This document shows positions 3,150 through 35,021 of a stretch of 64,000 nt of DNA, in pieces. Each line of letters begins with the position of its first letter. Position 1 is the stretch's first letter. Below the pieces are notes generated by a model. The model made no database searches, was not told the origin of the DNA, and saw only the letters and a program-made list of their open reading frames with translations. Made by a program: the position numbers and the translations under genes. This DNA is from an uncultured Chloroflexia bacterium (GTDB taxonomy: Bacteria > Chloroflexota > Anaerolineae > Anaerolineales > UBA11858), in contig CAVQGY010000002.1 of the NCBI GenBank assembly GCA_963712165.1, forward strand, positions 618,795 through 682,794, given 5' to 3'.

Positions 3150-3306
3150 GCTTGGCGTATGAGTTCACTTGGCGCCGGTTTTTTCTCGGTTGTCCATCAT
3201 CGGCTCTGGGTCCGCCGCAGGCACTCAGGTGCCTGTCCTGAGCCCCGCTTCTCTAACTCCGTCAAAGATCAGGTTAAACTCTGTCAAAGGAGAGCAGGGG
3301 TTAGTT
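3150..3306 (-). repeat. degenerate attC with micro-element insertion
   Basis: GTATGAGTTCAC...TCAGGTG[CCTGTCCTGAGC..]GAGCAGGGGTTAG. Confidence 0.55.
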
Positions 3307-3400
3307 GTCGTTGCCACTATATAAGCGTGCAAATCTTATGGTACGTGGATGAGCGAAAAAAAGCACTGTTAAAATAATTGAAATACTACATCCGATTTCT

Positions 3401-5056
3401 CTATTCTCCTCGGCCCTGGTTCATTTTCTTATGTAAGTGCTCCGGCCATTGGGAAAAATCCTCAGCGGGATATATTTCGAGTTCCGGGCCGTTTTGGGTT
3501 AGTAAATCTGCTGTTTTGCAGCCGAGAACATTTTTTGCCGCGGCCAGGCCAGAGCTGGTTACACCTGCTACTCCATGGCTTAGTGTGCTAGCTCCGCACA
3601 TGTATAAGCCTGCTATTTCGGTTTTGACGGGGAAGGAACCGGGCCCAACTTGCCTGCGGCTTTTTGAGATGCCGTATTGGTTGCCTCGGGTGGCGCTCAG
3701 ATAATATTCGTTTGTAAGTGGTGTGCCTAAATTCCAATAAACTACCTTATCAGATATGCCTGGGATGTGTTTTTCTAAAGTTTGGAACATTTTCCAAGCC
3801 AGGTCTTCTTTGAGTCCCTGGTAAGCGTCTGGGCGAGAACCCTGGTCTGAATCAGCCCATTCTTCAAAAGCAGCGTAATCTACAAAGGTGAAAGCCTCGC
3901 AGGTGTGGTGACCGCGCCCTTTGCCAGAGGTGTGCATTTTGGATGGGTCTTTGAGGGTGGTCACTGTTAAGAACATCATGCCAGGACGCTCAGCCGTCAA
4001 AGCGTGATCGGTTAAACCTTGTTTATATAATTCGTCTACATTTTCATTGTCGTAAAGCCAATAATTACCAGAATCCAGCCCGGCCTGTTCTAAATCCATA
4101 TCGAGCGCGAAAAATAGGCTCAACGCCGAAACGGAATAGGTAACGCGATCTAATTTGGCGACTAACTTTTGGCTCAGCGATTTGCGCCCGATAAGTTTTC
4201 CAAAGGTGATTTCCGGGTCGGCGTTGCTGATAACCGTCTCGGCGTGAATTTCTTCTCCATCCGCCAAGCGGATGCCGCACACACGCCCACCTTTGAGGAG
4301 GATTTTATCCACTCTGGTTTTGAGGCGTATTTCACCGCCGGCTCTTTTCAAAACCTTAACAAACGCTCTCGGGATGGCAAATGCGCCTCCGATCGGATAA
4401 TATCCCCCGTTGAAATAATGGTGCAAAATGCTAACTGGAACAAAGGCTGAAACTTGTGTAGGCGGCATGCCATGGTCGCCTGATTGCCCCGCTAAAATTC
4501 CTTGTAGAACGGGGTCATCAATAAAATGTTCGATCAAGTCTTGCCCCGAACGTGTGATCCAGCGGAGCAGCGAGATTGAGCCAATGGCGGCTTTGACTTT
4601 TTCAAGCGCACCTTTATCACTACCCAATTTGCTGAGCATTGCGACCATTTTTTCGGCGGTATCAAGATACCCATCAATGCCTTCAGATTCGTGCGGGAAA
4701 TATTCTTTTAGTCTCGCTGCTAGATTATCTTTACCTTTTGGGAAATCAAATTGCTGATCGCCTATTCGAATGTGGTCATATCCTTCGGGATTAAGTTCGG
4801 AGAAAGCGAGGTCGCCTGACACACCCAGTCCTTGATAAATGCGGCGCAGTGGCCCTCCTTCTTCGATACCACCAATATAATGCACGCCAGGGCTAAAGCG
4901 ATAGCCATTCAAGGTGAATGAGTGCGTCCATCCGCCGGGCACTTCATGTTGCTCGCAGACGAGAACGCTCTTTCCCGCTTGGGCTAAGGCAACCGCAGCG
5001 GTTAGGCCTCCCGCACCTGAGCCAATGACAATGATGTCGTAATATTTTTTGGACAT
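3401..5056 (-). CDS. phytoene desaturase/retinol saturase-like FAD oxidoreductase
   Basis: YDIIVIGSGAGGL, E...PGG, C-terminal GLYMCGAS..HGV.G. Confidence 0.85.
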   Translation of the reverse strand: MSKKYYDIIVIGSGAGGLTAAVALAQAGKSVLVCEQHEVPGGWTHSFTLNGYRFSPGVHYIGGIEEGGPLRRIYQGLGVSGDLAFSELNPEGYDHIRIGDQQFDFPKGKDNLAARLKEYFPHESEGIDGYLDTAEKMVAMLSKLGSDKGALEKVKAAIGSISLLRWITRSGQDLIEHFIDDPVLQGILAGQSGDHGMPPTQVSAFVPVSILHHYFNGGYYPIGGAFAIPRAFVKVLKRAGGEIRLKTRVDKILLKGGRVCGIRLADGEEIHAETVISNADPEITFGKLIGRKSLSQKLVAKLDRVTYSVSALSLFFALDMDLEQAGLDSGNYWLYDNENVDELYKQGLTDHALTAERPGMMFLTVTTLKDPSKMHTSGKGRGHHTCEAFTFVDYAAFEEWADSDQGSRPDAYQGLKEDLAWKMFQTLEKHIPGISDKVVYWNLGTPLTNEYYLSATRGNQYGISKSRRQVGPGSFPVKTEIAGLYMCGASTLSHGVAGVTSSGLAAAKNVLGCKTADLLTQNGPELEIYPAEDFSQWPEHLHKKMNQGRGE

Positions 5057-5095
5057 ATTCCTCTTGTTCAAAATTTTGACAGATTCGAATTTCAT

Positions 5096-5183
5096 CAATA
5101 AAAAGATAAGCTCACCCGACTAAGATAACTTGATTATCCATACGCCGCCAGCCCACAAAGATCGGGTGAAGCCTGGGTTAGCC
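5096..5183 (-). repeat. degenerate attC
   Basis: AAGCTCACCCGA...TCGGGTGAAGCCTGGGTTAGCC; R' eroded. Confidence 0.55.
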
Positions 5184-5216
5184 GCCAATGAGTTAATGAA
5201 TTGAAAAGGTCCCCAT

Positions 5217-5693
5217 TCAAGAATCCTTGATTGGGCGAATTGCTGCCATTGTTCGATTTGCAGCGTATTGCATAAGTTGCTCTCGCGTAGGCTTTGGACT
5301 CATGCCTTCAAGTTTAAGCATCGCACCCATAAACTTGGGATGGAGTTTTAAACGGTGCTCGAGGAAATCCGCGATTTGAGCGGGATCGGTGATTGGATCT
5401 GCTTGACCCAGAAATGTATAGGAACCCACGGTCAATTTCACATTTGGATCTGCTGACAGGTTTTGGAACCAATCCGCCTTGGCTCCCCGCGCCGAACCCA
5501 GATAGATAACCCCATCGATTTCTTCGAATTGGAGCGGTGTTATCCTGGGCAGACCAGATTTGCGTCCCTTTGTTTCTAATAAAAGCACAAAACCCCCTAC
5601 AAGCGAGCCGAGCCCCACCGAGTAGGCAATCCTCGGGGGTAAAAAACGAAGAAGACGCCATACGAAACGTGGAATTTTTTCAACCCTGTTCAT
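5217..5693 (-). CDS. F420-dependent (deazaflavin) nitroreductase family oxidoreductase
   Basis: LLLETKGRKSGLPR.TPL, ADWFQNL.A.P.V motifs. Confidence 0.85.
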   Translation of the reverse strand: MNRVEKIPRFVWRLLRFLPPRIAYSVGLGSLVGGFVLLLETKGRKSGLPRITPLQFEEIDGVIYLGSARGAKADWFQNLSADPNVKLTVGSYTFLGQADPITDPAQIADFLEHRLKLHPKFMGAMLKLEGMSPKPTREQLMQYAANRTMAAIRPIKDS

Positions 5694-5782
5694 ACCGGTC
5701 CCTTATTAAAGATTTTCCAGTGGTTTTTCAGTGTATTCTATCTACTCTTATTATATATGTCCTTGCGGTATTTCAATTCCGG

Positions 5783-6440: not shown

Positions 6441-7250
6441 TTATTTATCATTATCAGCTGGCAGGGTCATTGCGCAGCGAAACCCCACGCGCTGATTGGG
6501 CCTGACAGAATGAGAAGAATCACGGAAGAATGTCTTGGCAACCGCTGCATCTGAAGCCCATGATCCACCGCGCAAACCATGGTCTAATACTTCATCTGCA
6601 CCAGTCGGATTCTTGCTGGGAGCATAAGTGTAATAATCAAACTCAAAATAGTCTGACACCCATTCAGCAGCATTGCCTGCCATATCCAATACGCCATAAA
6701 TGCTTGCTCCCCCCGGGTAGCTTCCTACAGCTACAACACCACCAAGGTTGCTTTCCAGTGTATTTGCTTTTGATGGGTCCCAATGATTGCCCCATGGGTA
6801 TATCCACCCATCAATGCCCCGGGCAGCTTTTTCCCATTCGGCTTCACTCGGAAGACGTTTTCCTACCCAGCGGCAATAGGCGTCTGCCTCTGACCAGAGA
6901 ATTCCAACTACAGGCTCATCCGCCCCCTGTGCTACTATCGAATTGTCCCAGCCTCGTTTCGTCTGGAAGTTGGTCTGGGCAACAAATACTGAAAACGCCG
7001 CATTGGTTACTTCTGTTCGATCAATCGCGTACGCATCAAGATATACTTGACGCTGTGGATTATTTGACTTTCGGTCATCATCTTGGCCCATTAAAAACCA
7101 TCCCGCGGGAACAATGACCATTTCATTCAGCATGGTTTCTGGTGGCTGCGAACAAGATACACACCCAATGCCAAGAAATCCGAGTGTAATGAGAAATAAT
7201 GGCCAACCCCTACCGTATTCGCGAAATAGAAATTGGATAGTCATTTTCAA
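6441..7250 (-). CDS. formylglycine-generating enzyme (FGE-sulfatase) domain protein
   Basis: RLPSEAEWEKAARG, YPWG, DMAGNAAEWV, RGGSW, GFRC. Confidence 0.9.
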   Translation of the reverse strand: MKMTIQFLFREYGRGWPLFLITLGFLGIGCVSCSQPPETMLNEMVIVPAGWFLMGQDDDRKSNNPQRQVYLDAYAIDRTEVTNAAFSVFVAQTNFQTKRGWDNSIVAQGADEPVVGILWSEADAYCRWVGKRLPSEAEWEKAARGIDGWIYPWGNHWDPSKANTLESNLGGVVAVGSYPGGASIYGVLDMAGNAAEWVSDYFEFDYYTYAPSKNPTGADEVLDHGLRGGSWASDAAVAKTFFRDSSHSVRPNQRVGFRCAMTLPADNDK

Positions 7251-8746: not shown

Positions 8747-9412
8747 TTAGTGAACAGCATTTATAAACCATCCACCCACAGGTGAGGCGAAATTTAATAA
8801 AATATGAGCAAGTACAGTCCAGCGGATGGATCCGCTGGTTCTAGCCACCCAGCCCCAAACAAGTCCCAGGAGAATTGAAATCAGGGCAAATCTTAAAGTA
8901 TCGGCCGTTATCGTTCCAGAATCTACAATTTGGGGAGATAGATGCCAAAACCCAAACCAAATTGCTGGATAAAGATAACCCCAAAACAAATTTCCATTAA
9001 AAGCGACAACATAAGTTCCACGCCAGAGGATTTCTTCAAATGTTCCATTTGATATAGCATAGAAGAGCGAAAATAAAATAAACAGGGTAGTAGTCCCTTT
9101 GATGCTTGAGGAAAATTGAGTTAAGTATAGAAGGAGGGGGGGACCCGAGAGGAGGAGCAATCCCAGCCAGATCGGCTTGCCAAATTGCGGATCTGGTTTG
9201 CTAAACATTTCTCTTATTCCTTCAAGACCTACTGTGACCAAGGGTAACAAGAAACACCATACAAGCCAATAAAATATGAAACCAAATAGATAAGCTTTTT
9301 CACGACCAAGATTCGTGCTGAGATATCGGAAGAGAAAAAATGTTGAGACTAACAACACTGGAGGAGAGCCAAGAAGAATGTATTGTCTCGTATTAAACGA
9401 TGTAATCCCCAT
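8747..9412 (-). CDS. CPBP (Abi/CAAX) intramembrane metalloprotease
   Basis: EEILWRG, FGFWH, HxxxN motifs. Confidence 0.85.
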   Translation of the reverse strand: MGITSFNTRQYILLGSPPVLLVSTFFLFRYLSTNLGREKAYLFGFIFYWLVWCFLLPLVTVGLEGIREMFSKPDPQFGKPIWLGLLLLSGPPLLLYLTQFSSSIKGTTTLFILFSLFYAISNGTFEEILWRGTYVVAFNGNLFWGYLYPAIWFGFWHLSPQIVDSGTITADTLRFALISILLGLVWGWVARTSGSIRWTVLAHILLNFASPVGGWFINAVH

Positions 9413-9436
9413 AGGTAATACTCCAATCTTTAGGTA

Positions 9437-9710
9437 GGTTAACCGATGAGCTTTGCGAAGCATCTAGCCTGCGGGTAAGGGCACCTGCTCTGAGCGGACC
9501 CCGAGAACTTCGCTTCTCTCTGCATAAACTCCGCCGAGGGGGCAGTTGAAGAGTCAGGTGGTCCCTCCTGAGCCCTTCGACTCTGACTCCGTCATCGCTC
9601 CCTTCGCTATAACTCAGGGCAGGCAGGGTAAACCTAGCCGAAGGGGACCCCCCTGAGCAAAGCCGAAGGGGACCCTCCTGAGCAAAGCCGAAGGGGAGCG
9701 GGGGTTAGGT
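9437..9710 (-). repeat. expanded attC with nested and tandem micro-elements
   Basis: Insertions in both L boxes and loop; two tandem GACCCYCCTGAGCAAAGCCGAAGGG units at 9646-9695. Confidence 0.8.
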
Positions 9711-12904: not shown

Positions 12905-13801
12905 CTACTCGCTTCTCTGCAGTAAATATTCATCAAAAAACCCTACCACACGCTCCTCGTACTTAATAGGATACATGGGGTACATTCCTACATGGTTCAC
13001 ACCAGCTTCAGTCCATAAATAGCGGGGATCTCCTGAAGCATCATACAGGCGCTTTGCAGAATCTGCGGGTATCATGCCATCCGCTTCTCCCTGGATGATC
13101 ATTACTGGTCGAGGACTTATCGCTCTAATTCGATCTACCGGACGCAACATTTCTACCTTCACCCCGGTTTCTTTCTCAGCAAAGAATCGGATAAATGGCA
13201 AGAATATCCTGCTTGATACCGCCCATCTCAGTTCATCTTCCAGTGTGGGAAAGGCGCTATCCACTATCACAGCCTCTATCTCAAGGCGCCTCGATGCCAG
13301 CTCCAGCACTGCCACTCCCCCCATAGAACTTCCCCAGGCTCCGATATGCTCCACGCCTGCCTGGCGCAAAGCGTACTCTAACGCAGCCTCCACATCCAAT
13401 GCTTCATAATATCCTAATGTGCTCAGTTCTCCACCGCTATCACCATGTGCCCGAAAATCCCATGCCAGGACCCCGTATCCATTACGCGCATATAGCACAT
13501 ATTGGTCTACAGACCGCTTATCCCCATGACCATGGGCAACCAAAATCAGCGCTCCGTTTACTGGAGGTGTATACCACGCTGCCAGCTCTATCCCATCAAC
13601 AGTGACCAATTGAATATTTTCGTAGTCAATCCCATATACATCTGGTGTTTTGTTATCTAAAAGTTGGTTTCGTTGTGGATGTAAGTATCTTGAAGTGCTG
13701 TTAAAAGATGCGAATGCAATACTCCCGATAAACAATCCGCATAATACGATCAGGCCAAAGGAGAACAGATTGAACCAATACCGCCAACCCTTATTCTTCA
13801 T
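12905..13801 (-). CDS. membrane-anchored alpha/beta hydrolase
   Basis: DFRAHGDS, GSSMGG nucleophile elbow, QGEAD, catalytic His. Confidence 0.9.
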   Translation of the reverse strand: MKNKGWRYWFNLFSFGLIVLCGLFIGSIAFASFNSTSRYLHPQRNQLLDNKTPDVYGIDYENIQLVTVDGIELAAWYTPPVNGALILVAHGHGDKRSVDQYVLYARNGYGVLAWDFRAHGDSGGELSTLGYYEALDVEAALEYALRQAGVEHIGAWGSSMGGVAVLELASRRLEIEAVIVDSAFPTLEDELRWAVSSRIFLPFIRFFAEKETGVKVEMLRPVDRIRAISPRPVMIIQGEADGMIPADSAKRLYDASGDPRYLWTEAGVNHVGMYPMYPIKYEERVVGFFDEYLLQRSE

Positions 13802-16070: not shown

Positions 16071-16147
16071 GTTTGAAGCCCCTTTGTCAGTAAGGGTGTG
16101 GCGTATCTGAACTTGTTTGGAGACAATCCTGCTGTTACTGTTCTTCC

Positions 16148-22486: not shown

Positions 22487-22721
22487 ACATAACGGATGAG
22501 CTCACTTGTCCTGAGGCACGAAGGGTTGCGAAGCATCTACCCTGCGGGTAAGGGCACCCGCATCCGGGTCCAATTTTCAATTTTCAATTTTCAATCTCCA
22601 ATTCATCCCGGCTGTCAGGTGGTCCCTCCTTCGCCCTTCGATTCTGACCCCATCATCCCTCCCTTTGTTGTAGCTCAGGGCAGGCAGGGTGAACCTGGCC
22701 GAAGGGGAGCGCAGGTTAGGC
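22487..22721 (-). repeat. expanded attC, inserts in both L boxes
   Basis: Left insert as 18055, TTTTCAA loop, right nested insert. Confidence 0.85.
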
Positions 22722-24933: not shown

Positions 24934-25154
24934 TCCTAACGGATGAGCTTCGCGAAGCATCCTTTAGGGCACCTGCAGCCGGCTCCAATTTTTAATTTTC
25001 AACCTTCAATTCATCCCGGCTGTCTGGTGGTCCCTCCAGAGCCCTTCAACTCTGACCCCATCATCGCTCCCTTCGTTATAACTCAGGACAGGCGTGGCAA
25101 ACCTGGTCGAAGGGGACCCTCCTGAGCAAAGCCGAAGGTGAGCGTTGATTAGGA
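24934..25154 (-). repeat. expanded attC, inserts in both L boxes
   Basis: GAGCT[TCGCGAAGCATCCTTTAGGG]CACC... nested right insert; R'' mutated. Confidence 0.8.
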
Positions 25155-25511: not shown

Positions 25512-25675
25512 ACCTGCCGGATGGACTTCGTGAAGCATCTTTTCGGGCACCTGCTGCAGGCTTCAAGTAATCAGCAATCAGACTGCCCGGTCGGAAGCGA
25601 AGCTTCCCCCGGTCGTTCGCGCAGCGAACATCCTGCTGTCATCCGGAGCGTTGCGGAGGAGAGCGGGGGTTAGCA
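25512..25675 (-). repeat. attC with insertions, R' mutated
   Basis: GTCA[TCCGGAGCGTTGCGGAGGA]GAGCGGGGGTTAGCA. Confidence 0.7.
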
Positions 25676-26249: not shown

Positions 26250-26426
26250 TGCTAACGGAAGAGCTCACCCGCAGCAGGATCTATATTCAGTATACAGTAT
26301 TCAGCGATCAAACTGCCCGGTGGGAAGCGAAGCTTCCCCTGGTCTTCGGTCTCTTTTCCCCGGTCGTTCGTGCAGCGAACATCCTGCTGTCATCCGGAGC
26401 GTTGCGGAGGAGAGCGGGGGTTATGC
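26250..26426 (-). repeat. attC with L-box insertion
   Basis: Same TCCGGAGCGTTGCGGAGGA insert as 25512-25675. Confidence 0.8.
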
Positions 26427-26515: not shown

Positions 26516-27478
26516 TCAGTTCAACAGCACCTCGAGATTGGATTCAAACTCACTCAGATTCTCTGCTGGGTTGATGTCATAGTTCATAACATAGTTAGCG
26601 AACATCATTATTCGAGCCATGATGAAGGCATCAAGCTGCTGATCAGAAGCTATTGGCCAGGGCTAAATCACCTCGTAACCACTTCTGAAGGAATCGTAAA
26701 ACAATGAGAAATCATCTCTGAAACGCACGTGGTATAGCGCAGTCCCTAGATCTTGTTCTGGCCTTCCATAAGCGATATCCTCAAAATCATACATGTAAAT
26801 CTTCCCATGGTAAATCTTCAGGTTGCACGGATGAGGATCATTGTGGATGACAATGGGGGGGCAATCATTCCAGGCTTGATCGATGGCATGCTGCGATATA
26901 GAAGCACCGATTCTGAAGAGTTCCTGTCGTCTTGGAGGAAGAAGATTTGGATCCTTTCTGGAAAGAATGACTTCCTCATCCCAGTAGAAGACTCGATCGT
27001 TTCTCAGGATACTGAAGTCGAGGGTAGGCTTGAAATCCGCAGAAGCCTTGTGAAGCTCTGCAATACTCGTGCCTAGATAGCGATACGAGCGAGGTGAAAG
27101 ATCTCTCAGTTGCCTTCCAGGCACCCAGGAAATGAGGATAAAATGGGCAGTTTCAGGAAGCCAGAGGCTTTCGATTTTTGTGATGTATTCCCCCTCAGTA
27201 TTGGCAAATGGTGTCTCAATGGACAAAGGTGAATGCTGGCTGATATGTATCAGAAACTGCATCTCACCCTTGAGCTGAACATAATCGTGTTCGCTTGGGA
27301 TATGGAACTTTGCAGCGAAGATTCCTTGGTCAGATTTGATCCGAAACACCGGTCTCGAATTGTACGACACGAAACTGACAGAATCAATCTCGAGCGGATA
27401 TGCACCAAGCTTTTCGATGAGAACTCGGCGATACCTCTGAATTTTTCCCCGTGGTGTGAGCGATTCGAAATCTTTCAT
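26516..27478 (-). pseudogene. aminoglycoside/homoserine kinase-like phosphotransferase with in-frame TAG at 26663-65
   Basis: IHNDPHPCN, DFED; the frame continues PWPIASDQQLDAFIMAR... to TGA at 26516. Confidence 0.7.
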
Positions 27479-27490
27479 GGGTTCCTTTTT

Positions 27491-27588
27491 TCCTAACGTA
27501 TGAGCTCACCTGCAGCCGGGTCCAATTTTTAATTTTCAATTTTCAATCTTCAATTCATCCCAGCTGTCGGGTGGAGCGGGGGTTAGGG
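27491..27588 (-). repeat. attC (TTTTCAA-loop family)
   Basis: Canonical arms. Confidence 0.9.
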
Positions 27589-27590
27589 CA

Positions 27591-28088
27591 CTATTCCTGC
27601 TTCTGAAAACGCAAAATATACTCTAAATCATCAGGGGCATATTTCTTGAACAGCTCGATTGATCTATCCTCTAATACTCCTCCAAAATAGGTTTTTATGT
27701 GCCGGTTAATATAAGGATTGGTTTCAATGCTAAGACTTGACTGACCGATATTGTCGTGTAAAGAAAAGATGATATGGGGGATATCGGCCATAACCGTGGC
27801 TCCTAAACACATAGGGCAAGGTTCGACGGTTGTGAAGAGTATAGCTTTACGGTAATCCTTCCAAAGTTGTTCTCCCCCAGCCAACATCGCATTTAGTTCA
27901 GCATGGCTTAACTGACTCTTGACTTCGTTATGGCGAGCCCGCCCCCGCGAAATAACCTGATTATCGATGACAACAACGGCTCCGATTGGTATTTCTCCAG
28001 CCTGCCCAGCCAGCATGGCTTCATCGAGAGCTTGTTTCATGAACTCTTCCAAGTCGATTTCGGAGATTTCAGGATCAAGAAAATGCAT
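27591..28088 (-). CDS. TadA-like nucleoside deaminase
   Basis: GEIPIGAV, HAE, TVEPCPMC. Confidence 0.88.
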   Translation of the reverse strand: MHFLDPEISEIDLEEFMKQALDEAMLAGQAGEIPIGAVVVIDNQVISRGRARHNEVKSQLSHAELNAMLAGGEQLWKDYRKAILFTTVEPCPMCLGATVMADIPHIIFSLHDNIGQSSLSIETNPYINRHIKTYFGGVLEDRSIELFKKYAPDDLEYILRFQKQE

Positions 28089-28115
28089 AAATAACCTTGA
28101 AAATAAATGTAGTTG

Positions 28116-28242
28116 CCCTAACGGATGAGCTTCGCGAAGCATCCTGAACGCAGTGAAGGGCACCTGCAGCCGGGTCCAATTTTTAATTTTCAATTTTCAA
28201 TCTTCAATTCATCCCAGCTGTCGGGTGGAGCGGGGGTTAAGT
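28116..28242 (-). repeat. attC with L-box insertion
   Basis: GAGCT[TCGCGAAGCATCCTGAACGCAGTGAAGGG]CACC. Confidence 0.85.
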
Positions 28243-28252
28243 TTGGTCCGGT

Positions 28253-28558
28253 CTAGGCAATTGAATAAGAACGAACTTCTTGTTCTAAACGATCACCCAA
28301 CTCATCTTCGGCGACATCCAGATCATAATCACTTTGAAGACCCATCCAGAACTGAGCCGAGTTGCCAAAGAAGCGGGACAGCCGTAAGGACGTATCTGCT
28401 GTAACGCGCCTCTTACCCATCACGATTTCATTGATGCGGCGGGCATCAACACCAATGTTTATAGCCAGGCGGTTCTGGCTCAAATCCATCGGTTTGAGAA
28501 ACTCTTCCAATAACACTTCCCCTGGATGTACTGGTTTCAACTTTTTCTCAGTCATCAT
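28253..28558 (-). CDS. higA: HigA antitoxin
   Basis: HPGEVLLEEFL, RINEIV.GKR.VTADT.LRL, FWMGLQ. Confidence 0.92.
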   Translation of the reverse strand: MMTEKKLKPVHPGEVLLEEFLKPMDLSQNRLAINIGVDARRINEIVMGKRRVTADTSLRLSRFFGNSAQFWMGLQSDYDLDVAEDELGDRLEQEVRSYSIA

Positions 28559-28569
28559 ATACCTACCTT

Positions 28570-28851
28570 CTAATGATAATCAGTGATCTCAACGTTGTAT
28601 GCATCCCCATCAGCCCATTCAAAACAGATTCTCCACTGTTGGTTGATCCTGATACTGTGCTGCCCTGCTCGATCTCCCTTGAGCTTTTCCAATCGATTGG
28701 CAGGAGGGAGGCGAAGATCCTCAAGATCAATGGAGTTGTTGATCATTCGTAATTTTCGATAGGCCGTTTGCTGGATGGATTGAGGCAGCTTGCGCGAATG
28801 AAGCCGGGAGAAGATCCTTTCGGTTTCTTTGTCTTTGAACGACCTGATCAT
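28570..28851 (-). CDS. higB: HigB (RelE-like) toxin
   Basis: MIRSF, LRLPPANRLEKLKGDR.GQHSIRINQQWRICF, DYH. Confidence 0.92.
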   Translation of the reverse strand: MIRSFKDKETERIFSRLHSRKLPQSIQQTAYRKLRMINNSIDLEDLRLPPANRLEKLKGDRAGQHSIRINQQWRICFEWADGDAYNVEITDYH

Positions 28852-28857
28852 GAGTGA

Positions 28858-28886
28858 ATTATATAGCGTAACGCACTAAGCGTCAA
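28858..28886 (-). promoter_or_regulatory. higBA promoter TTGACG-N17-TATAAT
   Basis: cgtcaa 28881-86, attata 28858-63; ATG 7 nt downstream. Confidence 0.75.
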
Positions 28887-28921
28887 GCACAATACCACAG
28901 GAATAGAAGGAACAGGAATCA

Positions 28922-29046
28922 AACTAACGGATTGAGCTCACCCGCAGCCGGTTTTTCCCGGCCTCTTCACCCCGGTCCTCGGTCTCTTTATCCCGGTCGT
29001 GAACGCAGCGAACCATACCGGCTGTCGGGTGGAGCGGGGGTTAGGA
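28922..29046 (-). repeat. attC
   Basis: Canonical arms. Confidence 0.9.
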
Positions 29047-29069
29047 TGTAAATAATGACGACATTCTGT

Positions 29070-29423
29070 TTAGTTATTGCTCCAATCTGGTTTCCCTGAC
29101 CAGTCTGGATAATAGTAATCCGCCTTGACCCAACCGGTTGCACCATCAGAATTTACCCAATAAAAGATGATTCCATCATCTTTTTTCTTTGATGTCACTG
29201 TAGCATCACGACAACAACCAATACAAGTAGTTAAATATGCGCTGGTCTGTGAATTTATATATGGGGCTTTATAAACCCTAATTCCGCCTACCCTATCATT
29301 ATCACATAACCAACCCTTTTCATTGGTTGGGGTGATGCCCGTTGAACTATCTGTACTGCAGCTGATCAAGATTGCACTACTTATCAGCAAGAAGATAATG
29401 ATGACAATGCCCTCTTTTTTCAT
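29070..29423 (-). CDS. hypothetical lipoprotein (SH3-like C-terminus)
   Basis: Lipobox LISC, GWV motif, GGAGG RBS. Confidence 0.65.
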   Translation of the reverse strand: MKKEGIVIIIFLLISSAILISCSTDSSTGITPTNEKGWLCDNDRVGGIRVYKAPYINSQTSAYLTTCIGCCRDATVTSKKKDDGIIFYWVNSDGATGWVKADYYYPDWSGKPDWSNN

Positions 29424-29483
29424 CCACTCCTCCCTGTAGGTCTTTTTTAGAAATCAGTTGGTGGCATGTTCTCCTTATGTAGA

Positions 29484-29963
29484 TCAATCTTCAGTGTTCA
29501 TCTCTTTCAGTTCTTGAAGATACAGATCCAGGGTTTCCTCGTATATCAGTGCCTGATTACATCGATCATCAGAACCAATCATTGATTCATGGCCGGATAT
29601 CTCGGCGAGATATCCGGCATATTTGCCAAAATAACATTGTTCTGTAAACAAGGCGAAATTGAGGAGGGCTGAGTGCGCCTGGGAAGCAGAGAGGGGGAAA
29701 TCACATCCCTGTATTTCTTCTTTCAGCGCCATCATTTGCTTGATGATCGGTTCCAGGTCTTCTGTTGGCGTGGTCGCCGCTGCTGCCGCCAGGCCGTTCA
29801 CCTCATTTCTGAAATTATCGAACTCCCATATGGCCCGCTCACTTAAGGTCATTAACAAGGGATCTGGCGTGCTGGTTGGTCCCGTCTTGACTGATTCGCT
29901 ACAGGATGTGATTAATAATAGTCCGGCCAACAATATGATTGAGGATTTTGTCTTTGATTTCAT
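29484..29963 (-). CDS. hypothetical lipoprotein
   Basis: Lipobox ITSC, PTSTP linker. Confidence 0.65.
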   Translation of the reverse strand: MKSKTKSSIILLAGLLLITSCSESVKTGPTSTPDPLLMTLSERAIWEFDNFRNEVNGLAAAAATTPTEDLEPIIKQMMALKEEIQGCDFPLSASQAHSALLNFALFTEQCYFGKYAGYLAEISGHESMIGSDDRCNQALIYEETLDLYLQELKEMNTED

Positions 29964-30190
29964 CTTTTCTCTTGTATTACTTAATAGTATAAAGTAACAA
30001 AACTTGAGTGACTTAATAGAATATAAGCACTATGACCACGAATATAAAAAATATCGCGCCCCCAATAACCAAACAACTTGAATTTGGACCTCCACATCGC
30101 GGTTTCTGTAGATAAATTTTGGACATTATATTCTCTAGGAGACGTTATTCTATGAGCATCTCATATATAGGATTCTTCTTCCATCAATCA

Positions 30191-30307
30191 TCCTAACGGA
30201 TTGAGCTCACCTGCAGCCGGGTCGTGGTTTGAAAGATCGTACACCCCAGGCCATCCACCTTAACCGGCTGTCATCCGCAGCGAAGCGCAGGAGAGCGGGG
30301 GTTATGT
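30191..30307 (-). repeat. attC with hairpin insertion in L box
   Basis: GTCA[TCCGCAGCGAAGCGCAGGA]GAGC replaces GGTG. Confidence 0.85.
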
Positions 30308-30877
30308 ATCATTTTCAACATTAGACATGAACCAATTCGCTTCATCAGGCACAAACAGGTAAAAATCTTCAATTCCTGCTTTGCCGTTTAAGATTTGGAT
30401 CATCTCTTTTGAATCATCAAGATACCTAGACGCATTGTCGATTGATATCTCTTCTTCCCAGGATGTACTTGGAACACGTGGCACATCTCCATCTGCAAGT
30501 ATTTGAAAGCTGTTTTCTGTTAGAACCTCGGTTTTACAATGAGCTAGAGTATTTCTCAGAGCAATCATCCTGCTAAAAGTTTGAAATGGTCTCGAACCAT
30601 AATCAATGTTCATTTTAAGAATAGCCCCCAAGGTTTCCAGTTTTTCCTTTAGAGATAATTTTCTTTCGATAGTATCCCAAAAATCAGTTATATGAGCACC
30701 GAGATGGTTCAAATATGCTTCAAATGAGAACGCTGAAAAAACCATGGACGAAGCAATGAGATTGTTACTCCCTTTTTCTTCAGCCTTTGCCTTTTTTAGA
30801 CATGTGTAACTAATGTTCCTAAGATATGCGAATGTATAAACGGTCCGGTGGACATCAACCGTCTTTTTTTCAGTCAT
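30302..30877 (-). CDS. HEPN-like domain protein
   Basis: FSFEAYLN and RNTLAH (RxxxxH). Confidence 0.6.
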   Translation of the reverse strand: MTEKKTVDVHRTVYTFAYLRNISYTCLKKAKAEEKGSNNLIASSMVFSAFSFEAYLNHLGAHITDFWDTIERKLSLKEKLETLGAILKMNIDYGSRPFQTFSRMIALRNTLAHCKTEVLTENSFQILADGDVPRVPSTSWEEEISIDNASRYLDDSKEMIQILNGKAGIEDFYLFVPDEANWFMSNVENDT

Positions 30878-30894
30878 AGGTATTAGTTAATGAT

Positions 30895-31016
30895 ACATAA
30901 CGGATGAGCTCACCTGCAGCCGGGTCCAATTTTTAATTTTCAATTTTCAATCTTCAATTCATCCCAGCTGTCAGGTGCCTGCCCAGAGCGAAGACGAAGG
31001 GGAGCGGGGATTAGGT
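30895..31016 (-). repeat. attC with 24-nt insertion
   Basis: GGTG[CCTGCCCAGAGCGAAGACGAAGGG]GAGC; R'' ATTAG. Confidence 0.85.
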
Positions 31017-31035
31017 AAACCAAAAAGTTAAAGCA

Positions 31036-31332
31036 TCAAGCCAATACCTTAACCTCGTTCAAAATTTGGTCGCCACTTTGCATATCAAGTAATTCAAGGT
31101 CGTAGTGGGATTGAAGATTCAGCCAAAACTGGGGAGAAATACCAAAGAAATGGCCTAAGCGAAAAGCTGTATCAGCAGAAATTGACCGTTTTCCATGAAC
31201 GATCTCATTGATCCTTCTGGGATCAACGCTAATATCCTTGGCTAAACGGTACTGGGTAATTTCCATCGGGTTGAGGAACTCTTCCAGAAGGATTTCGCCT
31301 GGGTGGATTGGTTCTAATTCTCGCTTGCTCAT
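31036..31332 (-). CDS. higA: HigA antitoxin
   Basis: HPGEILLEEFL, RINEIVHGKR, FWLNLQ. Confidence 0.92.
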   Translation of the reverse strand: MSKRELEPIHPGEILLEEFLNPMEITQYRLAKDISVDPRRINEIVHGKRSISADTAFRLGHFFGISPQFWLNLQSHYDLELLDMQSGDQILNEVKVLA

Positions 31333-31350
31333 CTTGTGCTCCTCAAACAG

Positions 31351-31635
31351 TTAAGAATGATAGTCTGTTATTTCAACTTGATAAACATTGCCATCACGCC
31401 ACTGAAAACAAATACGCCATTGATCATTAATGCGGATACTGTGCTGCCCGGACCGATCCCCTTTGAGTTTTTCCAACCGGTTACCTGGTGGGATACGAAG
31501 CTGTGATAACTCTGTAGCAGCATGAAGGACCAATAACTTTCTTGTGCCCCTACGCCAGATATCTGGAGGAAGCTTACGGGGCTTTTGGCCATGAAATAAT
31601 GATTCAGTATCATGGTCTTGGAATGATTTGATCAT
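31351..31635 (-). CDS. higB: HigB toxin
   Basis: LRIPPGNRLEKLKGDRSGQHSIRINDQWRICF. Confidence 0.92.
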   Translation of the reverse strand: MIKSFQDHDTESLFHGQKPRKLPPDIWRRGTRKLLVLHAATELSQLRIPPGNRLEKLKGDRSGQHSIRINDQWRICFQWRDGNVYQVEITDYHS

Positions 31636-31643
31636 CTTAGAGA

Positions 31644-31672
31644 ATAATAGCGCAAAACGCTAATAGTGTCAA
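31644..31672 (-). promoter_or_regulatory. higBA promoter TTGACA-N17-TATTAT
   Basis: tgtcaa 31667-72, ataata 31644-49. Confidence 0.7.
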
Positions 31673-31692
31673 GCACAATGGTTTGTGGTTAT

Positions 31693-31822
31693 ACCTAACG
31701 GTTTGCGTTAGCCGCAAGTGGGCGGGACGAGACAACGCTGATTGGACGGATTTTACCTGAGCACAGAATCAACTCCTTTTAGCGGTGCGAATCCCACTTG
31801 TCGGCTGCAGGCTGTGTTAGGG
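31693..31822 (-). repeat. attC of a different sequence family
   Basis: ACCTAACGGTTTGCGTTAGCCGCAAGTGGG...CCCACTTGTCGGCTGCAGGCTGTGTTAGG. Confidence 0.8.
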
Positions 31823-31852
31823 GCAGTGAAACAACTCCGAGAGTCATGTCTA

Positions 31853-32422
31853 CTAATCCGCGGAATATTCACTCCGAAGCAGTCCGTACATTGCACTACC
31901 GTGATACTTCCCGTCATCTTCTAAAGTATACTCTCGGCGGATTCCTTCACATGTGAATCCCAACTTCTCCAACATTCGCACCGACTGGTGATTGTCTTCG
32001 ATAGTCGGTGCCTCTATACGATTCAATCCCATCTGATCAAAACCGAAGCGAATCACCCTTCGAGCAGCTTCGCTCCCTATTCCTTGACCCCAGAATTCAT
32101 GAGCTAGGTCATAACCAAGCATAGCCCGATTGTGAATACTCCAACGGTGAAATCCAATCATACCGATGATCCTGTCAACTTCCTGTAGTGTAATACCCCA
32201 AATAACACCACCGGTCCCTTCATACTCAGCATTGTAGGATCTGATCAACTCCTCAGATTCAGCTATCTCGGTATGCGGCTCTGCGTTGTACCTTTGAACT
32301 ATCGGATCACTGGAGAAAACAAAAACATCCGCTGCATCCGACATTTTGGGCTGCCTTATATACAGCCTCTCGGTCCTGAGAACTGGAAATTCCGACCAGC
32401 CTGTTTCATCATTGAAAACCAT
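31853..32422 (-). CDS. RimJ/RimL-type GNAT acetyltransferase
   Basis: FP.LRTERL, WGQGIGSEA, N..S.RMLEKLGF..EG. Confidence 0.9.
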   Translation of the reverse strand: MVFNDETGWSEFPVLRTERLYIRQPKMSDAADVFVFSSDPIVQRYNAEPHTEIAESEELIRSYNAEYEGTGGVIWGITLQEVDRIIGMIGFHRWSIHNRAMLGYDLAHEFWGQGIGSEAARRVIRFGFDQMGLNRIEAPTIEDNHQSVRMLEKLGFTCEGIRREYTLEDDGKYHGSAMYGLLRSEYSAD

Positions 32423-32455
32423 TAAAAATTTATCTCCATTAGAACTGACTACTGC

Positions 32456-32605
32456 ACCTAACGGATGAGCTCAGCTGCAGCCGGGTTTTTCCCGGTCTCT
32501 TCACCCCCGGTCCTCCGTCTCCCGTCCCCGGTCGTTCGCGCAGCGAACCTCACCGGCTGTCGGGTGCCTGCCCAGAGCGAAGACGAAAGGGAGCGGGGGT
32601 TAGAT
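32456..32605 (-). repeat. attC with 24-nt insertion
   Basis: GGTG[CCTGCCCAGAGCGAAGACGAAAGG]GAGC. Confidence 0.85.
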
Positions 32606-32613
32606 GCCTTCAA

Positions 32614-33021
32614 CTACCCTTGAGAAATGTATTTACCTAAATCAAAGGCAATCGAAGGAAATTCATTTAATATTTTTTGGTCCACAGTAATCAGATGTGT
32701 ATCAAGATCTTGGGCAAGAGCAACAAATTCACAATCATAGGCAGAACAATCGGAAGATGAGACTAGATTAAGGACCTGGAAAGATGCTACTTCATATTCT
32801 CGCCCATTCATTAGATTGATTGACTCAAGGATGATATCCTGACATTGGTTTATGGATAAAATATCCTTTCTTAGATAGTGAGCTAAAACATTTCTAAACT
32901 CGCTCCGCCACAATACAGGAGCAGCCCATTGATCATCCTTTTGCAACAAATTCTCTGCTTGGGATGAGAATTCACCTTCCAAAAATAGATAGGCGATAAT
33001 GTTGGTATCTACAACAATCAT
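32614..33021 (-). CDS. vapC: VapC (PIN) toxin
   Basis: VVDTN, E..N.L, SAYDCEFVALA, LIT.D. Confidence 0.9.
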   Translation of the reverse strand: MIVVDTNIIAYLFLEGEFSSQAENLLQKDDQWAAPVLWRSEFRNVLAHYLRKDILSINQCQDIILESINLMNGREYEVASFQVLNLVSSSDCSAYDCEFVALAQDLDTHLITVDQKILNEFPSIAFDLGKYISQG

Positions 33022-33260
33022 GGTCGCCCAACACTCTTAGTCTGGGTCAAATCCTGATTAGTGACCGGGTGATTTGCAGTGAGGGTTCTTAGTTTTCGTG
33101 CTTTATAGAGAAGCTTTTCAGTATCAATTGCCTGACTTTCAACGGTATTTTCAATACAGATGATGATTTCACTATTAATGCTGCGTCTATTCATATCGGC
33201 AGATATTTTGAGTTTTTTATAAAGGTCAGGGGGAATGTTCTTAACAGTAAAATTAGTCAT
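33018..33260 (-). CDS. Arc/FitA-like ribbon-helix-helix antitoxin
   Basis: TVKNIP..LY..LK..A..NRRSINSEI; overlaps vapC. Confidence 0.85.
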   Translation of the reverse strand: MTNFTVKNIPPDLYKKLKISADMNRRSINSEIIICIENTVESQAIDTEKLLYKARKLRTLTANHPVTNQDLTQTKSVGRP

Positions 33261-33287
33261 TCTTACCTCCCTAGCGGTTCCAATATA

Positions 33288-33321
33288 AAACCATTATGGT
33301 TTATTAGTAGCAATTTGTCAA
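33288..33321 (-). promoter_or_regulatory. vapBC promoter TTGACA-N17-CATAAT with palindromic operator
   Basis: tgtcaa 33316-21; aaaccattatggttt palindrome over the -10. Confidence 0.65.
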
Positions 33322-33343
33322 TACCAAAACAATAAATCAAGGC

Positions 33344-33473
33344 ATCTAACGGTCTCGAGCTCAGCTGCCCAGCGGCTCAGGCAACGGTCCAGCCATTCTC
33401 ACGCATTCTGGCAGGCAGGACACCACCCAACTTTCCGCACGCCAGCCGGGTCAGCTGCAGCGAGTGGTTAGCT
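33344..33473 (-). repeat. attC of a different sequence family
   Basis: ATCTAACGGTCTCGAGCTCAGCTGCCC...GGGTCAGCTGCAGCGAGTGGTTAGCT. Confidence 0.8.
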
Positions 33474-34168
33474 GGATCGGCGTCCAATATCTAGAAGGAC
33501 ATTGACAAGTTCATCTGTCTCTGTGAACGCGTGATCTGTGGTTATCTCACAATAGCTCCAGTTTGGATCTGACTTCACCCTTGGAGCTTGATCAACTGTG
33601 TATCTTAATGAGAGGGAGGTCTTCCTTGCCCTCCGTGCAATACACATAGGTTTTTGGGATTTGCACAGCCTGTGGATTCGCAATGGTGATTTTCGTTTGC
33701 ATGGTCGCGAGGGGATGCCCCGTATGCCGTGGATTCGCGCCAGGCCAATCTGGGATCATTTGCCACCCATCACCGTGTGCTTCCGCATTTGCCCTAAGGT
33801 ATTCCATAACCTGAGGCCCGACAATATCGGCGATCGATTGGCCGTCTCTTGGAATGATGCCATCTAGGATAACCAAGTGGGCAATACGTTCTGGGGACTC
33901 CTCGAGCACGCCTGCTGCTACCATTCCTCCATAGCTATGCCCGAGAAGGATTACCTCTTCGAGTTCTTCAAACTTGAGTACCATCAGGATATCTTGAATA
34001 TGTGTCTTGAGGTCAATATTCGGGTTGGTTAGGTGGATGCGTTCGCCAACACCAGTGTAGGTTGGACTGAATACTTCATGACCTGCATCCCGAAGTCGAG
34101 ATTCGATCCCTCTCTCGAACCCACCACCCCCCTGTGTGTCCGCCAGCGCAGAACAAGAACGTCGCCAT
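33468..34168 (-). pseudogene. alpha/beta hydrolase (methylesterase-like), frameshifted
   Basis: MATFLFCAGG..GGW start; GHEVFSPTYTG.GER and GHSYGG in another frame; C-terminus in a third frame. Confidence 0.7.
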
Positions 34169-34202
34169 TTTCGCCTCCTTTGGCTCCCAAACTATCAGAT
34201 CC

Positions 34203-34351
34203 AGCTAACGGATGAGCTCACCCGCAGTCGGGCCAGTTTTTAGTAATCAGTATTCAGAGATCAGTCACCACGTTCTAATTTTTAATTTTCAATTCATCCC
34301 GGCTGTCGGGTGCCTGCCCAGAGCGAAGACGAAGGGGAGCGGGGGTTAGCT
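34203..34351 (-). repeat. attC with 24-nt insertion and heptamer loop
   Basis: Near-identical to 34873-35021. Confidence 0.88.
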
Positions 34352-34366
34352 GGCGCCCCATTGCAT

Positions 34367-34855
34367 TTATTGGTCAGATAGCAGTTGGGGAGCCAGTTTA
34401 TTAGGGTAACGATAATCCTTCGGTCCGCAGGGAAATTCAGACAGCCAAAGTTCAAGACCCAACAAGCTAAAATCTTCATGCATTTGAATGTAAGTCTTTG
34501 CATTAAGTATGAGGTCATTCATTGTGCCAAGCACACTTGGATTGGAGGTTCTTGCGATTGATACCTCTCTCATCTCGGCTAATTCCATGGATACGGCTCG
34601 CTCTGAAACATCTAAATGAAAAAGAAGTTCAGATAACCTTGAGCGGAAATTGGGAAGTAATTGCTTTCTCTCTCTAAGTGGCATGATAACTGATAATAAT
34701 GATTGCTCACTTACAAAGATGATCAAACGATGATGCCCCTTGAACAAAACGTTTCCATACCAATCTCCCATGCGATTAGTTGGTTGTGGTGGGGAATCCA
34801 CAGCTGGTACTTGTAGCTTATCAATCAATTTTCGCGTACATCTAACTGAGAACAT
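34367..34855 (-). CDS. DUF6933-like hypothetical protein (intact copy)
   Basis: RCT.KL, GDWYGN, ARTSN.SVLG.MND, L...PCG. Confidence 0.7.
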   Translation of the reverse strand: MFSVRCTRKLIDKLQVPAVDSPPQPTNRMGDWYGNVLFKGHHRLIIFVSEQSLLSVIMPLRERKQLLPNFRSRLSELLFHLDVSERAVSMELAEMREVSIARTSNPSVLGTMNDLILNAKTYIQMHEDFSLLGLELWLSEFPCGPKDYRYPNKLAPQLLSDQ

Positions 34856-34872
34856 TGGATCTTTTATTGTCC

Positions 34873-35021
34873 AGCTAACGGATGAGCTCAACCGCAGCCG
34901 GGCCAGTTTTTAGTAATCAGTATTCAGAGATCAGTCACCACGTTCTAATTTAAAATTTTCAATTCATCCCGGCTGTCGGGTGCCTGCCCAGAGCGAAGAC
35001 GAAGGGGAGCGGGGGTTAGTT
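34873..35021 (-). repeat. attC with 24-nt insertion at 34983-35006
   Basis: GGTG[CCTGCCCAGAGCGAAGACGAAGGG]GAGC. Confidence 0.88.

Follow-up and report, generated by a model that had tools for sequence, protein, structure and literature searches.

Small hairpin repeats interrupting attC sites of a Chloroflexota integron: nesting, empty alleles and an association of the repeat class with small GIY-YIG genes

The Ssn proteins are single-domain GIY-YIG proteins of ~94 aa (cd10448) whose genes are flanked by SRM hairpin repeats, and the Neisseria version of these repeats, NTS, contains dRS3 (Chenal et al. 2025, PMC11893778). Binding of Ssn to its repeat requires single-stranded DNA (ssDNA) and is limited to one strand, and the cut falls a few nt upstream of the hairpin (PMC11893778). 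In the main text of that report the NTS-ssnA-NTS arrangement is compared with an insertion sequence (IS) and with the repetitive extragenic palindromic (REP)/RAYT system, spread of the repeats is not shown, and there is no mention of nesting, of insertion into other hairpins, of integrons or of Chloroflexota (PMC11893778; its supplementary tables may list related motifs). Here we describe small hairpin repeats, called units below, that interrupt the attC recombination sites of an integron in a Chloroflexota genome of 2.98 Mb in five contigs, 96.6% complete. The window, that is, the whole stretch of 64,000 nucleotides that was analysed, is G000:C2:618795-682794.

As far as the main text of the Ssn report describes SRM, the units share with it the form of oriented hairpin repeats of 20-50 nt, tagged at the 5' end (GTCAT type) and built around a GCG.A.GC-type core, the position on one or both sides of small (~95-115 aa) single-domain GIY-YIG genes, a wide, mostly intergenic distribution across phyla and, putatively, the ssDNA-only, strand-specific biology of Ssn. 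Flanking is found at the level of the motif class, at three of the four GIY-YIG genes of this genome, at two loci of other genomes (L232 and L153) and at 51 of 80 homolog loci. Stem and loop differ (CCTGAGCG.AG.CGAAGG in the units, ATTCCCGCG..GCGGGAAT in SRM), and the published SRM pattern misses the units.

Other described elements come close in other respects. Like REP sequences, REPIN with their RAYT and bacterial interspersed mosaic elements, the units are short extragenic palindromes with covarying stems, terminator-like positions and mosaic structure, which flank the gene of a presumed enzyme and are targets for other elements. Unlike REP/REPIN they flank GIY-YIG rather than Y1 genes, are smaller, and nest in one another and in attC. 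A defined position of the folded attC is also where IS of the IS1111-attC group and group IIC-attC introns go in, always in one orientation, and they can inactivate the site. The units also enter a defined attC position in a fixed orientation, but they are non-coding and 19-29 nt long, whereas those elements are kb-sized and encode an enzyme of their own, either a DEDD transposase or a reverse transcriptase. This 96.6% complete genome gave no match to the two families (IS110, PF01548; RVT_1 reverse transcriptase, PF00078), nor to TnpB. The small dispersed repeats (SDRs) of Nostocaceae measure 21-27 nt and are inserted into other repeats and into themselves (Elhai et al. 2008, as related in PMC5861425 and PMC3116915). 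Set against that summary, the units (19-29 nt, dispersed, three nesting levels) are alike in behaviour, with no encoded enzyme or known mechanism in either case; the phylum differs, and SDRs are not known to have been linked to attC or to GIY-YIG genes. Lastly, GCGNAGC is an extraordinarily stable DNA mini-hairpin in the account of one review (PMC13037366), and the unit core has GCGAAGC, GCGCAGC or GCGTAGC, although the mini-hairpin work covered there is oligonucleotide physical chemistry and not the study of genomic repeats.

The units are hairpin repeats of an already known kind, then: Ssn/SRM-like, REP-like and SDR-like. What is new is that they target the L box and the loop of attC, that they nest and that empty alleles exist, together with a motif class that the published SRM pattern misses. 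In the literature on attC and miniature repeats and on GIY-YIG and REP we found no report of small repeats interrupting attC, and a full-text search for the unit motif returned primers only. We favour, with a probability of roughly 0.55, the reading that in this Chloroflexota genus hairpin repeats of this class made their way into attC bottom-strand hairpins where these are unpaired, and into the loops of units already present, and that the class flanks GIY-YIG genes in an Ssn/SRM-like manner.

Interrupted attC sites in the cassette array

The locus is a sedentary chromosomal integron. Its integrase gene, intI (50237-51226, + strand), encodes 329 aa, matches Pfam Phage_integrase and Phage_int_SAM_4 and NCBIfam TIGR02249 (443 bits, cut-off 265), and has its nearest relatives in metagenome-assembled genomes of Chloroflexota, the best at 83% identity. 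Adjoining it on the left are ~60 minus-strand open reading frames (ORFs), with imperfect hairpins of the consensus CTAACGGATGAGCTCACCCGCAGCCGGGT-loop-ACCGGCTGTCGGGTGGAGCGGGGGTTAG between them. These form an array of 49 attC (3150-49440) in which the cassette ORFs have one orientation (-) and point away from intI. The attC are, to our knowledge, the only recombination sites recognised as folded single strands. The features by which they are defined in the structural sections of PMC5027507 and PMC5371416 (R and L boxes, spacer, extrahelical bases, variable terminal loop) are found here as R boxes CTAAC/GTTAG, an unpaired spacer GGATGA vs GGGGG, L boxes GCTCAC/GTG(G)AGC and variable loops of 20-100+ nt. 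The extrahelical T and G of the 3' arm, CTG[T]CGGGTG[G]AGCGGGGGTTAG, are on the + strand, and this identifies the + strand as the recombinogenic bottom strand. Elsewhere in the genome there are a small array without intI (CALIN, C2:1006390-1009891) and a lone attC (C2:76326).

A simple scan for arm complementarity detected no attC, because inserts shift the arms, and was replaced by motif pairing and gapped alignment; both arms of the 49 attCs were aligned to the clean consensus with one long gap allowed, and the rows were classed by eye. The L boxes of the 14 intI-proximal attCs (39269-49440, +) are uninterrupted in every case, whereas 23 of the 35 distal attCs (3150-35769) have at least one L-box insert (Fisher p = 1.6e-5, a significance that is overstated, as the attCs are related). 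Inserts of 19-85+ nt are present in either arm, at GAGCT^CAC (L') in 13 of the 35 and at GGTG^GAGC (L'') in 17, three of the latter being replacements of GGTG that we call V-type. In the folded stem L' and L'' face each other, at the extrahelical G of the L box, and inserts are confined to these two facing positions and the apical loop. At least five distinct insert families occupy one and the same stem position. Without exception, first-level units run 5'-CCTG..GAAGG-3' along the bottom strand of attC: 12 of 12 first-level regular-expression matches, four copies of the unit U1 and three V-type copies are on the + strand, and the five minus-strand matches are all nested within plus-strand units.

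A second species shows the same contrast. On contig C1 of genome G007, with an intI of its own (80% identity), the 17 attCs adjacent to intI are all clean, while L' inserts are present in five of nine distal attCs, two of which are also V-type (hypergeometric 126/65780 = 0.002); the 11 proximal attCs of a second array in that genome (L001 record) are likewise clean. In two genomes of the same genus the motif CCTGAGCNNNNYCGAAGG is again in attC L'' boxes, and V-type sites recur in same-genus attCs (L095). Loop contents differ along the array as well. The loops of three proximal attCs examined have no 15-mer in common with DNA outside the arrays, whereas distal loops are built from repeats dispersed elsewhere in the genome (15-mers were used for this comparison; 12-mers gave chance matches everywhere). 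The distal placement of filled sites is in keeping with a build-up of inserts in old cassettes that seldom recombine, with immobility as a consequence of insertion, or with both, and the insert state offers a structural marker of young versus old cassettes in a sedentary integron.

The initial annotation, made from the letters of the sequence, had described a 24-mer that splits the attC arm exactly at the extrahelical G, and it is indeed found there. This unit, U1 (CCTGCCCAGAGCGAAGACGAAGGG), has four copies, all on the + strand, with none expected from 100 shuffles, and each separates GGTG from GAGCG in the 3' arm of an attC (L''). The copy at 30978-31001 is in attC 30896-31014, for which a natural empty allele is known; 32567-32590, with one mismatch, is in attC 32457-32603, which has a different loop; 34313-34336 belongs to attC 34204-34349 of cassette X (DUF6933); and 34983-35006 to attC 34874-35019. 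The same annotation held that related units split the other arm at GAGCT^CAC. In five attCs, CACTTGTCCTGAGGCACGAAGGG-type units do follow GAGCT of the 5' arm (10426, 11535, 16943, 18071 and 22503), and the 23-nt unit at 22503-22525 (+) opens a 52-nt composite L' insert. Further L' inserts are one of 29 nt at 28132-28160 (+; attC 28117-28240) and Lp20, a 20-nt insert (TCGCGAAGCATCCTTTAGGG; 24950-24969, +), all five genome copies of which are in attC 5' arms. At V-type sites GGTG of L'' is replaced by TCCGGAGCGTTGCGGAGGA, which yields a unit with the tag TGTCAT (26393-26411, +; also 25642-25660, and a variant at 30274-30292), with microhomology (TGTCA / GA) at both junctions. Units may also form loops, as had been seen from the sequence: CTCTGAGCGGAGACGAAGAG is the whole apical loop (17001-17020, +) of attC 16930-17040, and an independent attC at C2:1007573 has the loop CACTGAGCAGAGACGAAGTG with a compensatory stem change relative to it. 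Near-confinement to the attC arrays of this genome is a property of the L-box subfamilies (Lp20 5/5, U1 5/6, U2 6/7, U3 5/5).

Nesting to three levels with tandem 25-nt copies had been reported for three regions and is present at all of them (9439-9708, 18056-18324 and 19002-19214). In the composite that fills the L'' box at 9560-9645 (+), an outer plus-strand unit encloses an inverted one (9573-9599 and 9624-9633), which encloses the innermost (9600-9623); two tandem 25-nt units, GACCCYCCTGAGCAAAGCCGAAGGG, occupy 9646-9695 (+), directly 5' of GAGCGGGGGTTAG. A U1-type element is inserted in the same relative orientation at GGTG^GAGCG in attC and at CCTG^AGCG within the inverted unit, and further targets are GAGC^ or GAGCG^ in unit loops. 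Each unit carries a new GAGC site, and this accounts for the nesting and the tandem arrays.

Are these inserts discrete events, or do they only appear so in an array of diverged sites? Clean and filled alleles, for which an alignment check had been proposed, show that they are discrete indels. The clean attC 27493-27586 and its neighbour 28117-28240 are identical except for 29 nt. CALIN attCs a and b have an identical long loop and no difference apart from a 20-nt L' insert, present in one and absent from the other. The V-type attC 30193 has a loop of a family common to clean proximal attCs, and a single copy outside the arrays, C5:281233, is a level-2 element without the level-3 insert. Cassette X has three nearly identical copies, two with clean attCs and the third with another loop and the 24-nt unit. 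Contigs of four public runs (Logan) were also compared with 27300-35200, and are informative only where they cover it. In run X6, from a different study, a 339-nt contig covers 30936-31298 minus exactly 24 nt after 30977. Filled states are reproduced with 0-1 differences by contigs of other runs (X1 records 1 and 6; X5 record 17), the 29-nt insert 28132-28160 with 0 differences (X1 record 1), which rules out an assembly artefact.

Indels are not the only changes. One contig of X5 passes from 28160 to 30911 across 62 loop bases that the two sites have in common. It combines the 5' portion of attC 28117 with the 3' portion of attC 30896 into an attC with both inserts, which shows that recombination within loops shuffles arm states as well. 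At 30202-30273, contigs of three runs leave the window at 30272/30273 and continue as a clean L'' arm, GGTGGAGCG.GGGTTAG, where the window is V-type; these may derive from paralogous attCs of the same loop family. An empty site is known outside integrons too. The terminator hairpin at C2:177.7 kb has a unit in its loop, and the loop is short in the same-genus genomes G034 and G017. The intergenic region around it (C2:177550-178290; locus L235 650-1390) is ~714 nt long, against 26-80 nt in five same-genus genomes. It is filled with pieces of sequence that recur at eight or more other genomic positions.

The repeat class and its association with small GIY-YIG genes

By their sequence, the units belong to a widespread class of hairpin repeats with a covarying stem of 4-6 bp around the loop GAGCGNAG(N)CGA. 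Stem variants are CCCT/AGGG, TCCT/AGGA, CTCT/AGAG, CACT/AGTG and others; the loop contains the GCGNAGC mini-hairpin, with possible tandem G.A pairs, and a GTCAY or GCCTGY tag often precedes the unit. Under a strict definition (a perfect stem of at least 4 bp around GAGCGNAGNCGA) the whole genome has 9, 16 and 30 copies at 0, 1 and 2 mismatches, compared with 0, 0 and 7 when the loop is reversed. Arrays hold just 3, 7 and 9 of the copies, respectively; 6 of the 9 exact copies and 21 of the 30 with up to two mismatches are outside. Units outside the arrays are found in terminator-like hairpin loops, in GTCATCCTGAG..GAAGGATCC and GCGGAGCCTGT..GGGCTC repeats and in intergenic repeat islands, and the nested form CCCTGAGC^[inverted unit]^CGAAGGG also occurs there. 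Flank complementarity at these units is modest, with 10 of 51 below the 5th percentile of 1000 random controls. No replication-strand bias of unit orientation, judged by GC skew, was seen in a sample that is small and diluted by chance matches.

These counts bear on two claims of the initial annotation. It had proposed a tiny non-autonomous element that recognises GAGC-containing hairpins, and the units are small, discrete, non-coding, nested and next to GAGC, but the class is not specific to attC. The preference for L boxes that it assumed holds for the subfamilies, which are almost confined to arrays, and fails for the strict copies at large. Micro-cassettes made by IntI were considered as a further source and are ruled out, as the units are not at R boxes and are also present outside arrays and in loci of many phyla in which no integron context was seen.

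The class is not restricted to this genome. The motif CCTGAGCNNNNYCGAAGG occurs in 19 of 31 genomes (30 relatives and this one), with its reversed control at 0 in all. An exact 18-mer was found in at least 120 stretches from Acidobacteriota, Bacteroidota, Alphaproteobacteria, Patescibacteria, Planctomycetota, Cyanobacteria, Chloroflexota and others. Although this is roughly as many matches as chance predicts in 596 Gb, they are not chance, because among 87 matches in 80 loci inspected the upstream tag (GAGCCTGY or GTCAY) is visibly conserved and there are local multiples. In 80 integron loci of other taxa (1.02 Mb) only four strict units were found, so that filled attCs are no general property of integrons. 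Strict units ~90-1500 nt beyond the intI match were seen in three unrelated integron loci, at L047 1133-1200, L071 2503 and L034 1998 (Methylotenera, Anaerolineales, Nodosilinea), those of L047 as an inverted pair. In the relative G027 (L103-L110), a ~150-nt element resembling a miniature inverted-repeat transposable element, with terminal inverted repeats GGGTGCATTCCAGATTT .. AAATGCACCC, holds most of the 36 units of that genome.

Which enzyme could serve such repeats? That no transposase is in the window, as the initial annotation stated, agrees with a Pfam scan of the 26 larger ORFs, through which alone DDE families were covered. It had also suggested looking for a nuclease located with the units, RAYT or GIY-YIG among the candidates. 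None of the genome-wide matches to Y1_Tnp and GIY-YIG falls within the window; the genome does have four small GIY-YIG genes, at C2:98305-98643, C2:293398-293700, C5:69426-69746 and C5:91726-92010, and three of the four are flanked by unit-family repeats. Pfam assigns the proteins to GIY-YIG only, and NCBIfam gives no match. One gene has on either side 2.5 tandem copies of a ~145-nt repeat with a nested unit in it, another lies between inverted GTCATTGCGA..GGCAATC elements, and the third behind four to five tandem repeats with GTCATCCTGA..GAAGGATCC. Among the 18-mer loci listed (at least 120), a small GIY-YIG gene is 12 and 58 nt from the unit in two (L232 and L153), with units on both sides, inverted or in tandem.

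The association extends to GIY-YIG homologs at large. In 80 homolog loci from many phyla, sampled with a three-sequence GIY-YIG alignment, AGCGNAGCGA is within 400 nt of the gene in 51, at a density of 1.23 per kb near it and 0.06 far from it. The comparison of near with far serves as the control, because AGCGNAGCGA is mirror-symmetric when N = A and its reverse is no valid one. Typical flanks are TGTCATTCTGAGCGNAGCGAAGAATCTC and its inverse. Units of the class are thus associated with small stand-alone GIY-YIG genes in many phyla, in a form, stem plus GAGCGNAG(N)CGA, that the SRM pattern has overlooked. The Y1 enzymes present a different picture. Three full Y1_Tnp genes (RAYT/IS200-like, ~140 aa) are at C2:151897, C2:153940 (to 154284) and C2:714507-714842, the last ~32 kb to the right of the window, and a fragment is at C2:1011458, 1.5 kb from the CALIN. 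The three genes are flanked by hairpins of their own (GCTCCCGGnnnnCCGGGAGC, AACCAAGCCCC..GGGGCTTGGTT) and not, as would be expected of a REP/REPIN-RAYT pair, by units.

Explanations for the entry of units

On the reading that we favour, units would enter the L box at the extrahelical G, in either arm, and the apical loop of the folded bottom strand, as well as the loops of earlier units, which would produce nesting and tandem copies. Insertion would take place on single-stranded, folded DNA next to GAGC. An Ssn-like enzyme might take the arm TGTCA-NNNN-GAGCG of an attC to be a unit's 5' half and nick it, and the nick could then be repaired by copying another unit. The attC 3' arm TGTCA-GGTG-GAGCG does resemble the 5' half of a tagged unit, TGTCA-TCCT-GAGCG, and the V-type sites look like attC arms converted into full units with microhomology at both junctions; it is this resemblance and this microhomology that make us favour nick-and-copy repair. 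Copies would afterwards multiply within the array by attC duplication or gene conversion, as is suggested by neighbouring attCs that are nearly identical and share loop and insert state (34204/34874, 25531/26252, 22488/23257/24935), and would accumulate in its old, intI-distal part. Interrupted attCs would probably recombine poorly. The dependence of insertion on the nuclease is a tentative element of this scheme, possible but with the odds against it.

A number of findings weigh against this interpretation. GIY-YIG nucleases cut but do not join, and so cannot explain insertion alone. No GIY-YIG gene is in the window, a GIY-YIG ORF is present in only 3 of the 120 18-mer loci listed, and the exact 12-nt-loop type, which is the attC type, is near the gene in only 2 of the 80 homolog loci. 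No GIY-YIG homolog was found in G027 with its 36 units, and over 31 genomes the number of units is not significantly correlated with GIY-YIG copies (Spearman 0.20; within the genus 0.52, p = 0.02, for kin that are not independent). The published SRM pattern, HGTCWYN(0-2)YYVSBRHN(0-5)WNVSBRGN(0-2)RNCYNB, which the NTS consensus matches as a positive control, has 0 matches in the window and 12 in the genome as against 16 in the reversed genome. By nearest-neighbour folding the units are not unusually stable (-1.2 and -1.7 kcal/mol, z ~0) under a model that omits GNA mini-hairpin bonuses. The empty metagenome allele is a single X6 contig at a depth of 3.5. Finally, as neighbouring attCs are near-identical, many array copies may descend from few events.

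This last point leads to the strongest alternative, in which there is no ongoing mobility. A few ancient indels, made by slippage or template switching at hairpins, would have been spread by attC duplication, gene conversion and homologous recombination, and the likeness to other repeats would reflect a shared bias toward stable GNA mini-hairpins. The likeness of neighbouring attCs in loop and insert state and the shuffling of arm states through 62 shared loop bases in the X5 contig speak for it, but conversion would have only ~13 nt of homology to either side of L' to work with, a short length. Two species have L' and V-type inserts in common, so that these are old, and V-type sites are replacements with microhomology rather than clean insertions; yet at least five unrelated insert sequences are at one stem position, and units are also in unrelated non-attC hairpins with orthologous empty sites. 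An 18-mer identical across phyla and accompanied by conserved tags is not predicted by mere structural bias. We regard this alternative as improbable, though it deserves to be taken seriously.

The initial annotation preferred a dedicated attC-specific micro-transposon, which would recognise the L box or its own GAGC hairpin and lock cassettes in place by destroying the IntI L site. Two exact insertion positions, subfamilies that are almost only in arrays and filled attCs that are distal only, in two species, all speak for such an element, although the restriction of the subfamilies can stem from attC duplication. Most strict copies, exact or loose, are outside arrays, units are in terminator loops, in other repeats and in many phyla, and the other integron loci are nearly devoid of them, so we consider a transposon of this specificity unlikely. 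Its locking component deserves separate attention. In the predicted minimum-energy structures of U1-filled attCs the distal stem is kept and L-box and R-box pairing is lost; this prediction, like the proximal-clean, distal-filled pattern, fits the locking idea. In the experiments given in PMC5027507, deletion of extrahelical bases reduced recombination 50-fold for VCR2 and not for two other sites, so that loss of such features does not abolish recombination in all attCs. Locking of cassettes by inserts is for that reason plausible and not a given. Natural attCs with defined side hairpins at the extrahelical G provide direct test material for the tolerance of IntI.

The chemistry of IS200/IS605 Y1 transposases both cuts and joins. 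Could units be REP/REPIN-type elements, moved as ssDNA hairpins and without target duplication by the RAYT or IS200-like Y1 enzymes of this genome? The ssDNA hairpin logic of that family (PMC6006769) and the strand bias both fit, and there are three full genes and the fragment near the CALIN, but it is other hairpins (GCTCCCGGnnnnCCGGGAGC and similar) that border the Y1 genes, the units flank GIY-YIG genes instead, and the genome yielded no TnpB, which leaves this more doubtful than a micro-transposon. Least probable is that the inserts are selected parts of working attCs, side hairpins that tune folding, terminate transcription or mark cassettes for a nuclease, their positions being due to selection and not to targeting: inserts are indeed only where the folded site is already unpaired (extrahelical G, apical loop), U1-filled attCs keep near-perfect arms (alignment scores of 32.8-48 of 52) and the variable terminal structure of attC is described as varying widely (PMC5371416), yet older attCs filled by composites have decayed arms (24-32 of 52), the 14 + 17 + 11 intI-proximal attCs of three arrays have 0 inserts, and the predicted minimum-energy structure loses L and R pairing.

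To return to the favoured reading, in which repeats of the class entered unpaired attC positions, its implications go beyond this array. Ssn/SRM-type repeats are able to act as very small insertions, nested and with empty alleles, and the spread of such repeats, cyanobacterial SDRs and Neisseria dRS3/NTS included, becomes testable in a compact system. Through the units, cassette shuffling may be tied to small DNA-cutting enzymes. A bolder proposal, and one that we think unlikely, is a functional coupling between the attC sites of integrons and ssDNA nucleases of the Ssn type. The units, which lie on the recombinogenic strand, would there have the orientation that is cut by an Ssn-like enzyme, a filled attC would be cleaved exactly when it is single-stranded and folded (during excision, lagging-strand replication, conjugation or transformation), and off-target cutting at the SRM-like arm TGTCA-NNNN-GAGCG with templated repair would be the route by which units enter. 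If this were true, the units would act as a brake, enforced by the nuclease, on how readily old cassettes move or are replaced horizontally, in a unit-gene-unit layout comparable to NTS-gene-NTS in Neisseria, and small GIY-YIG nucleases would be the long-sought engine of very small nested repeats.

Other features of the locus and the genome

An Rfam scan of the window gave no family at gathering score. At 48419-48588 a truncated attC (ATAACGGATAGCTCACCCGCAGCCGGG..CCACCTTAAC) is joined at an internal loop TTAAC to the next attC (TTAACTATGAGCTC..), which looks like recombination at a secondary AAC site. The three copies of cassette X are at 34367-34891, 44320-44816 and 48588-49216; the 44-kb copy has several small deletions and no long ORF, and the 34-kb copy has an attC loop that differs from that of the other two, with a nearly identical ORF.

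The cassettes encode diverse Pfam families: an amine oxidase (3401-5098), an FGE-sulfatase (6441-7250), Rce1-like CAAX proteases (8747-9463 and 19220-20032), an alpha/beta hydrolase (12905-13801), an ABC transporter pair (13993-16166), an HD domain (20114-20770), an FMN reductase (23492-24190), an APH-family phosphotransferase (26663-27478), AbiTii (39413-40177) and SUKH-1 (41948-42661). At 36768-38794 an ECF-type sigma factor is beside a 481-aa protein without a family. Pairs of overlapping small ORFs resemble toxin-antitoxin systems by their layout (e.g. 18336-18925, 28253-28851 and 32614-33260).

Tandem heptamers (CGTAAGG / CTTACGR) at C1:18400-18450 and C2:98770-98800 adjoin unit-rich regions and a GIY-YIG gene; in cyanobacteria, heptamer repeats host SDRs. 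The commonest 11-mers of the genome are combinations of CCWGG and GATC (CCAGGATCAGG 54 times, GATCAGGATCA 48 times), with the palindrome ACCTCCGAGGT at 45 times, and this excess may be an over-representation like that of the highly iterated palindrome (HIP), reflecting methylation or repair motifs.

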